Assembly (NCBI GenBank): GCA_964590715.1 | Contig: CAZPXI010000001.1 | Location: 1-39,763, forward strand | Direction: 5' to 3' | Length of the DNA: 39,763 bases | Origin: an uncultured Desulfobulbus sp. | GTDB taxonomy: Bacteria; Desulfobacterota; Desulfobulbia; Desulfobulbales; Desulfobulbaceae | Shown: positions 899-27,370 of the stretch, in pieces | How positions within the stretch are numbered: position 1 is the first letter of the stretch | How the letters are laid out: every line of letters starts with the position of its first letter | The notes under the pieces: model-generated | Databases searched by the model: none | What the model saw: only the letters and a program-made list of their open reading frames with translations | Told to the model about the DNA's origin: nothing | Position numbers and translations under genes: made by a program

Positions 899-985
899 AT
901 GCAGCAAGCGGAGATATTGCAAGTTATGGATGAACAACATGGCTTAACCGGTCGGATAACCAAATTTAAAAAAGGAGGGATGTGA
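899..985 (+). CDS. Candidate 28-aa upstream ORF or leader peptide overlapping the sheath start codon (speculative)
   Basis: An ATG at 899 lies ~6 nt after AGAGGAGG. It encodes MQQAEILQVMDEQHGLTGRITKFKKGGM. Its TGA (983-985) shares the A with the sheath ATG (985-987), giving ATGTGATG. No homology is recognised. Confidence 0.25.
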   Translation: MQQAEILQVMDEQHGLTGRITKFKKGGM

Positions 986-25447: not shown

Positions 25448-27370
25448 ATGCTGCAGACCAAACCGCTTGCGCTACGGATAACTCCTCTGATTCAGCAACA
25501 GCCGCTGGAGGAAGAAGAGGAAAAGATGCAGATGAAGGGGCAAAGAGACGGGTCGACTGCTGTGGCCGACACCTCGAACCTGCAGGGCCATATCTCGTCC
25601 ATAAAAGGTGGCGGTCTACCCTTGTCTCAGGCCGAGCGGTCTTTTTTTGAGCCCCGATTCGGTTGCGACTTCAGCAGAGTTCGTATTCATAAAGACAGTC
25701 GAGCCGCAGACACGGCATCAGCGGTCAATGCCCAGGCATTCACCTATAAAAATAACATTGTTTTCGGATCCGGAAAATATAGTCCCCATTCTGAATCAGG
25801 CAAACAGCTTCTTGCACATGAATTGACCCATGTGGTGCAGCAGAAAAGCAGGAGTAATATAAAGCTGAAAAGCTATCCGTCTCCACTAAAAAAAGAAAGT
25901 ATTTCTTCAAGCAGGCAGAGTTTACAGGTAGCTAATAAATCCAATATGATCCAAAGGCGAAGACTGCCGCCCAATACGGAAGTCACAGGACTCGTCAGCC
26001 CTGGTGCATCAGGTTCGGCGGCACATCGTGCCGGCTTGGCAAGACTTGTGCGTCGTTCAATGGCGGAACTAACTTCGGCACAAAGAACCGCTGTTGCAAC
26101 ACGGGCAAGAGGGGCACTAACTCTTGCTCAATTTTCCGCTTTGCCGGTGTGGAGAAGAAATGAATTGTTGGCTCAAGCAATTTATGCCTTGCGTCCGGAT
26201 TTACGACATGGAGATCCACGATTGTTCCTGACCGGACCCAGGCCCGGTCTCTTGGGTATCCAGGACAGGCTGAATACGGCAATGTTGGTATCGCTGGCAA
26301 ACATCTACTTTATGCTTATCGCCTCCCGTATTTATGATACCTCCATCGGTCAGGTATTCGGGGTAGGTAATATCAACGCGGTAAGGACCAATTATGCCAA
26401 TGCGCAAAGACGTCTGAACATTTTATTCTCGCAAAATAAAATTGTCACTGATCGTTCAGGCTATGCCGAAGACGTAGGTCTGGGCGGCTTGACGAATTCA
26501 ACCAGAATTATGGTGTCCCCTGGGACAATAGATCATCCAGCCAATATTGACTCGATTATTACAATTATTCATGAAAGCATGCATGCTGGAAATAGTACTA
26601 TTGGTGATGATGGAGGGTATATCGGCAACCCACTACTTTTTACTCGAAAGCCGGAGTCGGTCAAACTTCATAATGCAGCCCATTATGAGGTAGTTGTATG
26701 GAGAATACTGGCTCCGACTCATGCTTCCGCTTATACCGGGCAAACTTTTATCCCCGCGGGTACGACTGTCGGTGGAGTAACGGCACCGCCGCTTACCGCA
26801 ACCCAACAGGGAGTGGATGATGCAAAGCAAACATTTCGCAAAGCCTGGAGTACGGGCCTGGATCTTGCCGAGATATATATGGATGTCAATGTACATCCTG
26901 CCAGATGGACGGTGCCGTTAACAACGTTGGGATATAGTGGAGTGCCGGCAAATGCTAGATTCAGTAACACTTTGCCATATTGGTCAAAAGTAGAGAGGCT
27001 GACTATTCATCAAAGAGGAAGAACAATTTCACCGACCAGCGCGAATGTATCAAGGCGGCCGGTTACAAGAATTGATGTTGCTCTGTCGGAGGGTGTTGGC
27101 AGAAAACTGAGTACAGCCACGGCGCAACTACCTCAAAATCAAGCAGTGGCACAAACTTTTATTCATAGCCATACCACCGCCAGCCAAAGATTAAGAATTG
27201 CCGGAAATGCGAGAAGGATAAGGAATCTTTTACTCAGGCTTGTTCTGCGTCACCGGGTTGGGCAAATTACAGGTAATACGGGAAGGGATTTAAGGGTGGT
27301 GAAACGATTGGCATGGGCGGACAGGTGGAGCCGTATTTTACGGCCAAGAAATCCGAACACCTTCCCATAA
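25448..27370 (+). CDS. DUF4157 zincin-like protein with a second HExxH C-terminal domain (candidate eCIS cargo/toxin)
   Basis: GGGLPLSQAERSFFEPRFGCDFSRVRIHKDSRAADTASAVNAQAFTYKNNIVFG, LLAHELTHVVQQ is the DUF4157 signature (HELTH at 25817-25831). A second motif, IIHESMHAG, lies at 26570-26584. Last gene of the operon. Confidence 0.85.
   Translation: MLQTKPLALRITPLIQQQPLEEEEEKMQMKGQRDGSTAVADTSNLQGHISSIKGGGLPLSQAERSFFEPRFGCDFSRVRIHKDSRAADTASAVNAQAFTYKNNIVFGSGKYSPHSESGKQLLAHELTHVVQQKSRSNIKLKSYPSPLKKESISSSRQSLQVANKSNMIQRRRLPPNTEVTGLVSPGASGSAAHRAGLARLVRRSMAELTSAQRTAVATRARGALTLAQFSALPVWRRNELLAQAIYALRPDLRHGDPRLFLTGPRPGLLGIQDRLNTAMLVSLANIYFMLIASRIYDTSIGQVFGVGNINAVRTNYANAQRRLNILFSQNKIVTDRSGYAEDVGLGGLTNSTRIMVSPGTIDHPANIDSIITIIHESMHAGNSTIGDDGGYIGNPLLFTRKPESVKLHNAAHYEVVVWRILAPTHASAYTGQTFIPAGTTVGGVTAPPLTATQQGVDDAKQTFRKAWSTGLDLAEIYMDVNVHPARWTVPLTTLGYSGVPANARFSNTLPYWSKVERLTIHQRGRTISPTSANVSRRPVTRIDVALSEGVGRKLSTATAQLPQNQAVAQTFIHSHTTASQRLRIAGNARRIRNLLLRLVLRHRVGQITGNTGRDLRVVKRLAWADRWSRILRPRNPNTFP

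Follow-up and report, generated by a model that had tools for sequence, protein, structure and literature searches.

What kind of machine is encoded by a long run of contractile-tail genes in an uncultured Desulfobulbus sp., and what turns its production on, are the questions raised by the locus studied here. The DNA that holds it, hereafter the window, is the whole of the metagenomic contig CAZPXI010000001.1 (GenBank assembly GCA_964590715.1; 39,763 nucleotides), and an identical sheath gene is present on other assemblies. Positions 985–27370 comprise 20 tightly packed open reading frames (ORFs), all on the + strand, in agreement with an initial annotation that had described about 20 co-directional genes there as a complete, capsid-less operon resembling an extracellular contractile injection system (eCIS) and had put it forward as a candidate for an undescribed lineage. 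Our analysis supports the first of these proposals and not the second: with a probability of about 0.8, we read the locus as the gene set of a complete capsid-less contractile injection system (CIS) of the Afp/PVC-type ("eCIS") superfamily, falling within dbeCIS lineage II, with IIa as the best-fitting subtype, and carried as an accessory operon.

Class of the contractile injection system

Two sets of genes carry this reading, as found with the hidden Markov models (HMMs) of Pfam, NCBIfam (TIGR), and PHROG and with sequence searches of the PDB (table 1). The first is a contractile tail core, namely the sheath, the tube, gp25, Baseplate_J, and a hub and spike of the gp27/gp5 type, all of which give significant matches except the hub. 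The second is the combination of DUF4255 (Pvc16_N), AAA+, and DUF4157 (eCIS_core), which are treated as core domains of eCISs (Geller 2021, PMC8213781). The sheath, tube, DUF4255, AAA, spike, gp25, Baseplate_J, and DUF4157 calls of the initial annotation, and with them the marker set on which it had relied, were recovered by the HMM searches.

No ORF of the window encodes a TssB/TssC pair, TssJLM, TssK, or ClpV of a type VI secretion system (T6SS), and a single protein of phage type makes up the sheath. Capsid, portal, terminase, and lysis genes, which had likewise been reported as missing, were found neither in the window, nor upstream of it on a longer contig (L001; L numbers designate the contigs and loci compared with the window), nor in the 10 kb upstream of syntenic relatives, the sequence visible ahead of the sheath of this exact element amounting to about 1.9 kb. 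These results bear on the possibility that the genes form a (defective) myovirus prophage tail module or an R-type tailocin, an idea to which the short visible upstream region leaves some room, as does the fact that the cluster adjoins a tRNA-like fragment and an IS200-type transposase and that its structural families are all common to myovirus tails. However, DUF4255/Pvc16_N, AAA+, and DUF4157 are markers enriched in eCISs (PMC8213781), there is neither a phage-type tape-measure/chaperone pair nor a lysis cassette, the 10 kb upstream of the relatives hold regulators and metabolic genes without any head gene, and the sheath matches those of T4 (gp18) and pyocin at E-values of 1e-06 to 5e-05, against 3e-67 for a CIS sheath. 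The prophage tail reading is on this basis largely refuted, and we regard it as exceedingly improbable.

The sheath also indicates which CISs are closest. Its best PDB match is the haloarchaeal Cis2 of clade IIa (9EZM, 3e-67), barely ahead of the Streptomyces Cis2 of clade IId (8BKY, 6e-66) and followed by Pvc2/Afp2 of clade Ia (about 1e-41 to 1e-44) and by the tCIS and AlgoCIS sheaths of clade Ib (about 1e-34 to 1e-35). Sheath homologues number more than 3000 proteins at E ≤ 1e-10. The family, with members of about 800 aa, extends over no fewer than 585 genome stretches; these come from a wide range of bacterial phyla and one archaeon, with cultured Chitinophaga, Pseudomonas, Achromobacter, Plasticicumulans, and cyanobacteria among their sources. 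The gene order is kept in the relatives L083–L086 as well as in dozens of genome loci. eCISs had already been reported in sulfate-reducing Desulfobacterota and in anaerobic methanotrophic (ANME) archaea (PMC10553843).

According to Chen 2019 (PMC6899500), lineage II is characterized by the absence of afp14, by the division of afp8 into a gp27-like and a gp5-like ORF in IIa/IIb/IIc, by two copies of afp11 in IIa/IIc, by divergent afp12/afp13 genes that separate IIa/IIb from IIc/IId, and by two to three subtype-specific unknown genes, afp10 being listed in IIa. In the window, the two afp11 copies are adjacent ORFs that score 191 and 153 bits with TIGR02243, the split afp8 appears as a Phage_GPD match on 10429–11544 and a Phage_base_V match on 11544–12260, no ORF matches CIS_TMP/afp14 or another tape-measure family of Pfam, NCBIfam, or PHROG, and additional genes without an assigned family are present. 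As for divergent afp12/afp13, the afp12-like call is weak (3e-03 and 4e-04), and the fibre is clear but of the DUF6519 class. IIa is the subtype at which these lineage II descriptors, the afp12/afp13 one being tentative, intersect, and it fits best.

The same comparison decides against a previously undescribed eCIS lineage, which the initial annotation had suspected from modules that depart from the Afp/PVC layout and which we hold to be most unlikely. Such a lineage would accommodate the fact that sequence searches against solved structures return nothing for the baseplate proteins, the cap, or the DUF4157 protein, that several ORFs belong to no family and PAAR is not recognizable, and that the 811-aa sheath is far longer than characterized sheaths; but every departure that had been singled out is a published lineage II subtype descriptor (PMC6899500), the fibre class is published as well (PMC12923769), and the sheath family and gene order recur across the 585 or more genome stretches, material of a type that dbeCIS and eCIStem have surveyed. 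As an eCIS, the locus is one more entry in a very widespread group that has already been catalogued (lineage II, IIa-like), and its one unusual feature is the riboswitch described below.

Some observations weigh against the preferred reading as a whole. The subtype was deduced from published descriptors and from the ranking of PDB E-values rather than from a dbeCIS phylogeny; the hub, Afp12-like, tube-initiator, and LysM calls fall under curated thresholds; the ORF in the Afp10 slot gave no PAAR match, though afp10 is listed for IIa (Chen 2019, PMC6899500); and the tape-measure role proposed below for 4838–5848 is read from a sequence pattern only.

Parts list and chromosomal setting

The ORFs of the cluster are separated by −11 to +56 nt, and every junction overlap quoted by the initial annotation is present in the sequence (ATGA 4838–4841, TTGATGA 9124–9130, TGATG 9430–9434, TAGTG 11542–11546, and TAATG 15617–15621). 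A scan of the + strand of the 5′ leader (1–1100) returned no terminator-like site besides the one that follows the tRNA-like sequence and the riboswitch hairpin. Since the ORFs overlap or nearly abut and the leader contains no further terminator, we treat the 20 genes as a single operon. The families in the initial gene list agree with the HMM results, and the list lacked one gene, the 100-aa ORF at 25106–25408.

Table 1. Features of the window from its left edge to the end of the CIS operon, with the match or reading behind each of them
Feature	Position	Strand	Evidence
tRNA-Asp(GTC)-like sequence, 3′ 43 nt, cut by window edge	1..43	+	Rfam on longer contig L001
Intrinsic terminator hairpin after tRNA-like sequence	52..81	+	13-bp stem, then T-run
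Candidate sigma-70 promoter, TTGAAG-17 nt-TATGTT, about 10 nt upstream of aptamer	229..258	+	by eye only
c-di-GMP-I clan (GEMM-I) riboswitch aptamer	268..344	+	Rfam RF03167, 75.8 bits (gathering score 59), E 2e-16
Expression platform: terminator hairpin 329–374 and T9 run	329..381	+	minimum free energy and centroid folds of 262–385, z = −3.7
Sheath (Cis2/Afp2-4 family), 811 aa, large conserved insertion	985..3420	+	Phage_sheath_1 1.4e-09, Phage_sheath_1C 1.2e-11
Inner tube (Cis1/Afp1)	3455..3961	+	Phage_T4_gp19 6.9e-37, TIGR02241 1.3e-37
Lineage-specific conserved protein in "chaperone slot"	3972..4841	+	weak T4_baseplate (baseplate-hub-like) and phrog_150 only
Low-complexity, proline-rich protein, candidate tape-measure analogue	4838..5848	+	conserved ends; fourth gene
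Tail terminator/cap (Afp16/Cis16)	5862..6986	+	Pvc16_N (DUF4255) 1.6e-23
AAA+ ATPase (Afp15/Cis15)	6989..9127	+	AAA 1.8e-30, residues 487–612; same slot in relatives
Small conserved protein	9124..9432	+	homologues in same position of L012, L083, L085; no family match
Tube-initiator-like protein, like N-terminal part of Afp7/Cis7-type proteins	9429..10136	+	CIS_tube 5.9e-03
LysM-like protein, like C-terminal part of Afp7/Cis7-type proteins	10133..10426	+	profile only; no Pfam match
gp27/gpD-like hub, first half of split Afp8	10429..11544	+	Phage_GPD 1.3e-06, 28.2 bits (gathering score 30.1); phrog_52 tail protein 1.3e-09
gp5/gpV-like spike, second half of split Afp8	11544..12260	+	Phage_base_V 5e-23; weak VgrG C-terminal models
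Small conserved protein, Afp10 slot	12272..12658	+	homologues in same position in four loci
gp25-like baseplate wedge (Afp9)	12689..13057	+	GPW_gp25 6.1e-13
Baseplate J/Afp11 paralogue a	13058..15619	+	Baseplate_J 4.6e-11; TIGR02243 3.6e-56, 191 bits (cut-off 155.8)
Baseplate J/Afp11 paralogue b	15619..18309	+	TIGR02243 1e-44, 153.2 bits (just below cut-off 155.8)
gpI/Afp12-like baseplate protein (weak call)	18299..20659	+	Tail_P2_I 3.3e-03, TIGR02242 4e-04, both residues 28–139
Tail fibre, DUF6519 ("eBAP5") class, beta-helix region, 1140 aa	20675..24097	+	DUF6519 4.5e-15, residues 1–174; Beta_helix 5.8e-10
Protein with weak Ig-like/CarboxypepD_reg segment	24111..25049	+	weak phrog_28292 match
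Small Cys-rich ORF, 100 aa, C-terminal "EQEADRVAGQVM" motif	25106..25408	+	sequence reading
DUF4157 (eCIS_core) protein, HELTH and all-alpha C-terminal domain of about 490 aa	25448..27370	+	eCIS_core 1.5e-31

Several of these genes deserve comment. Homologues of the protein in the "chaperone slot" follow the tube gene in 66 loci and share four invariant cysteines (C111, C116, C222, and C225), and a profile of this family compared with the PDB returned zinc-ribbon matches at chance level only. The protein encoded at 4838–5848 matches no HMM of Pfam, NCBIfam, or PHROG, and its homologues (L003–L083) keep the N-terminus YFxRLAxRSG and the C-terminus SR[HY]YLRG[WY] around a proline-rich middle of variable length, which is the pattern expected of a tape-measure-type protein; from this pattern, we infer a candidate tape-measure analogue. 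The pattern occurs in a lineage reported to be devoid of afp14.

Afp7 seems to be divided here as Afp8 is. Profiles were built from syntenic homologues in related loci and gave E-values of 0.007–0.65. The profile of 9429–10136 (25 homologues) weakly matched residues 109–147 of 9rce_H and residues 28–103 of the tCIS protein All3321, and that of 10133–10426 (17 homologues) matched the LysM domain of Kbp (E 0.0068) and, at E 0.13–0.65, Afp7-type CIS proteins (All3321 178–222, AlgoCIS 7aeb_M 174–206, and Salmonella 9rce_H 168–206). Because both profiles cover complementary halves of the same Afp7-type proteins, they suggest that Afp7 is split into these two ORFs. Farther downstream, the ORF in the Afp10 slot has no PAAR, Pfam, NCBIfam, or PHROG match, and may be a divergent member, the HMMs of Chen 2019 not being among the models used. 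The two Afp11 paralogues are 24–26% identical to each other in two blocks; Afp11a, the Afp12-like protein, the cap, and the DUF4157 protein found no match in the PDB sequence search. Proteins that combine DUF6519 with a beta-helix constitute the "eBAP5" class of tail fibres, described as receptor-binding (PMC12923769).

The operon ends with the DUF4157 gene, whose C-terminal domain (window 25895–27367) contains an HExxH motif, HESMH, at residues 375–379 of the protein. Homologues of this domain were detected in no fewer than 276 proteins spread over many phyla; among the listed ones, the majority are fusions with DUF4157, and H226, E227, and H230 (domain numbering) are invariant in the family. 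The AlphaFold2 model of the protein is confident (predicted local distance difference test 90.6; predicted template modeling score 0.88), and a Foldseek search with the model of the C-terminal domain found no match in the PDB or BFVD. CIS clusters of other types, such as a Malonomonas rubra cluster with CIS_TMP, carry the same DUF4157/C-domain protein at their 3′ end, and, because the protein recurs at this place in differing types of clusters, it is probably a conserved accessory component or a candidate metallopeptidase rather than a variable toxin. No toxin gene is recognizable in the locus, which counts against the reading preferred here. The small Cys-rich ORF that precedes the DUF4157 gene terminates in a motif, EQEADRVAGQVM, that we take to be typical of the region immediately N-terminal of DUF4157 domains, and this ORF may be a fragment of the following gene or a separate partner of it.

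With regard to the host, the RNase II encoded in the flank shares 74% identity with proteins from Desulfobulbaceae metagenome-assembled genomes and 65–67% with those of Ca. Electrothrix and Desulfolithobacter. From these identities, the host is assigned to an uncultured, anaerobe-type Desulfobulbales bacterium (Desulfobulbaceae) of the sulfate-reducer type, in line with the anaerobe-like genome that had been proposed. Two related Desulfobulbaceae contigs show the arrangement ctpB-era-RNase II-rmlC-rmlB without a CIS, and their similarity to the window breaks at the 3′ end of era (window 28647). On the evidence of this backbone without a CIS and of a synteny that ends at the 3′ end of era, the CIS operon (about 26 kb, 20 genes) is, as judged by comparison of these sequences, an accessory insertion in the Desulfobulbaceae chromosome. 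GC content does not clearly mark the island. The remaining genes of the window (thioredoxin-like, MerC-like, Era, RNase II, RmlC/RmlB, MCP, and others) belong neither to phages nor to a T6SS. After the operon end at 27370, thioredoxin_3-like and MerC-like ORFs occupy the minus strand between the CIS operon and era (27588–28136), outside the backbone synteny of the related contigs; an ORF called on the + strand at 27510–27998 was rejected, the real genes there being these two.

At the opposite edge, what had been annotated as a tRNA is the 3′ fragment of a tRNA-Asp(GTC)-like sequence, and not a full tRNA. Rfam scores it at 46.4 bits over positions 861–919 of L001, position 888 of which is position 1 of the window, and ARAGORN reports no tRNA at the window start or on L001, because the 5′ acceptor strand, as read from the L001 sequence, is not complementary and stays unpaired. 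A weak match to a tmRNA 3′ end at the window start was superseded by the Rfam match and the reading of the L001 sequence. At the island's left edge, the element is probably a tRNA fragment or an att-type remnant; no direct repeat of it was found within the window, including its right edge. Upstream of it, L001 700–930 shows three tandem repeats of about 30 nt (aagatatatatactgtccccggaacttgcg) and an IS200-type Y1_Tnp gene.

Riboswitch and leader of the operon

The second question, that of what controls the operon, finds a candidate answer in its leader. The aptamer detected there lies on the same strand as the operon, without a called gene between it and the sheath, and its best model is the "GGC" variant (RF03167) of clan CL00126. 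At the position where this variant has a G, the aptamer carries an A, as canonical cyclic di-GMP (c-di-GMP)-I aptamers do; we equate its G/A/C positions with Vc2 20/47/92, and infer from this pattern that the ligand would be c-di-GMP. Downstream, the 5′ arm of the terminator is the 3′ strand of the aptamer, and because the two structures share this strand, positions 268–381 are predicted to act as an ON switch. With its full-length aptamer above the gathering score and an intrinsic terminator as expression platform, the element resembles the c-di-GMP-I riboswitches (CL00126). A variant locus with a 94%-identical sheath (L087) retains both the aptamer and the terminator, the latter differing there by one loop base. 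The region of the candidate promoter is conserved in L087 too, and the promoter was not reported by a consensus scan.

How widely this arrangement is distributed was examined with our own covariance model in 87 + 3 + 41 sources, several metagenome contigs among which had too little upstream sequence. The riboswitch was found only in identical contigs and in the 94%-identical variant, whereas about 125 other related loci lack it in their upstream regions. Because so many related loci lack the element, the riboswitch–CIS link is, among the sequences compared, specific to a narrow lineage. This absence speaks against the proposed control by the riboswitch, and so does the distance of about 600 nt between its terminator and the sheath start, which could hold a second promoter that bypasses it. 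The search of the literature found no paper that directly links a cyclic-dinucleotide riboswitch to a CIS operon, the nearest link, an indirect one, being that of V. cholerae TfoY and its T6SS.

The remainder of the leader (390–984) includes strongly conserved blocks at about 428–530 and 838–985 and no convincing gene, and a consensus search for sigma-54 promoters gave nothing near it. In L087, a 150-nt insertion (390–540) directly follows the terminator. A 28-aa ORF (899–985, + strand) has a strong GAGGAGG ribosome-binding site and a stop codon that overlaps the sheath start (ATGTGATG); it has no similarity to the small pre-sheath genes of L084 and L085, and its coding status is doubtful because most of its differences in L087 are non-synonymous. 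Its role might be that of a leader peptide or of a coupling element. Other regulators stand upstream of the sheath in close relatives, namely a BTAD/SARP-type gene at 4747–5607 of L084 and a sigma-54 activator at 919–1869 of L085; it seems that regulatory inputs have been exchanged between the hosts of this CIS family.

Mode of action and relation to named systems

By reference to characterized CISs, the baseplate would assemble around the split hub and the spike, with gp25, the two Afp11 paralogues, and the Afp12-like protein, and the tube would start on the split Afp7 equivalent, that is, on the tube-like and LysM-like ORFs. Tube and 811-aa sheath would then polymerize, to a length perhaps set by the low-complexity protein of 4838–5848, until the DUF4255 cap closes the distal end, and the AAA+ ATPase may help in assembly or in cargo loading. 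The DUF6519/beta-helix fibre would bind a glycan of the target surface, upon which contraction of the sheath would drive the spike-tipped tube in. As for expression, transcription would enter the operon through the c-di-GMP-I-type riboswitch, whose bound ligand would disrupt the terminator, such that production would be on at high c-di-GMP, i.e., in the sessile or biofilm state.

Where such a machine would act is less clear than what it is. The initial annotation had called the system extracellular; its place in the eCIS superfamily stands, and the extracellular action was overstated, as the cytoplasmic CIS of Streptomyces and the membrane-bound CIS of haloarchaea, whose sheaths are the closest solved ones, possess the same markers. 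We lean slightly toward particles that are released and act outside the producer. Against this stand the facts that neither of the two nearest characterized systems is extracellular, that the production, release, and firing of particles are predicted from genes, and that no lysis or release gene is found in the locus or the window. The same machine could instead act inside the producer, bound to the cytoplasmic membrane like the haloarchaeal IIa system or lying free in the cytoplasm and causing stress-induced or developmental cell death like the Streptomyces CIS and the cyanobacterial tCIS, and control by an intracellular second messenger would suit such a cell-fate device, to which the sheath ranking and the lack of release genes also point. 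Yet no transmembrane helix is predicted in any of the 20 proteins, whereas the haloarchaeal and Streptomyces systems depend on membrane proteins encoded in their clusters, and a 1140-aa fibre with a beta-helix, from a receptor-binding class, suggests an external target; we therefore find the intracellular mode rather unlikely, and keep extracellular release as the preferred reading.

A bolder proposal is that the riboswitch directly gates a lineage II CIS, tying it to the biofilm state, and that the domain joined to DUF4157 is perhaps a new metallopeptidase fold spread across eCIS subtypes. We advance this tentatively; if true, it would provide the first direct RNA-level link between second-messenger signaling and an eCIS-type machine, in a host family, the Desulfobulbaceae, that includes the cable bacteria. 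The riboswitch offers a concrete and testable regulatory input for machines whose induction signals are mostly unknown, and the DUF4157-linked HExxH domain, conserved across eCIS subtypes without a structural relative, is a good lead on the function of DUF4157 proteins. The lineage II systems with two Afp11 proteins have no structurally characterized bacterial representative, and this compact single operon would be a reasonable structural target.

Among named systems, the closest is the CIS of Halogeometricum borinquense ("archaeal T6SS"; sheath 9EZM), which is membrane-bound and the only characterized IIa member (PMC11566945). The two share the double afp11, the split afp8, the absence of afp14, the DUF4255 cap, the AAA+ ATPase, and a fibre, in addition to the best PDB match of the sheath; a divergent afp12, weakly called here, may be a further common trait. 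Unlike the haloarchaeal cluster, the present one belongs to a bacterial, presumably Gram-negative host, forms a single uninterrupted operon with a riboswitch in its leader, encodes no membrane protein and no recognizable PAAR, and has a sheath of 811 aa instead of 574 aa; the haloarchaeal particles are membrane-bound, whereas those predicted here may be free.

The Streptomyces coelicolor system CIS-Sc (IId; 8BKY/8BL4) comes next (PMC10066040). It also belongs to lineage II, owns the second-best sheath match, and lacks a typical tape measure and ClpV, but it differs by a single afp11, an unsplit afp8, two tube genes, and the absence of a conventional fibre, as well as by a cytoplasmic action that requires the membrane protein CisA (PMC10066040). 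More distant are Afp/PVC (Ia) and AlgoCIS, tCIS, and MAC (Ib), which have another gene order, single and fused Afp7, Afp8, and Afp11 proteins, an Afp14 tape measure, and several sheath paralogues, with sheath similarities of 1e-34 to 1e-44. Nonetheless, these systems have in common with the present one the core parts list and the DUF4255/AAA+/DUF4157 set, and it is to the tubes of tCIS (1.9e-10) and AlgoCIS (4.1e-09) that its own tube is closest.

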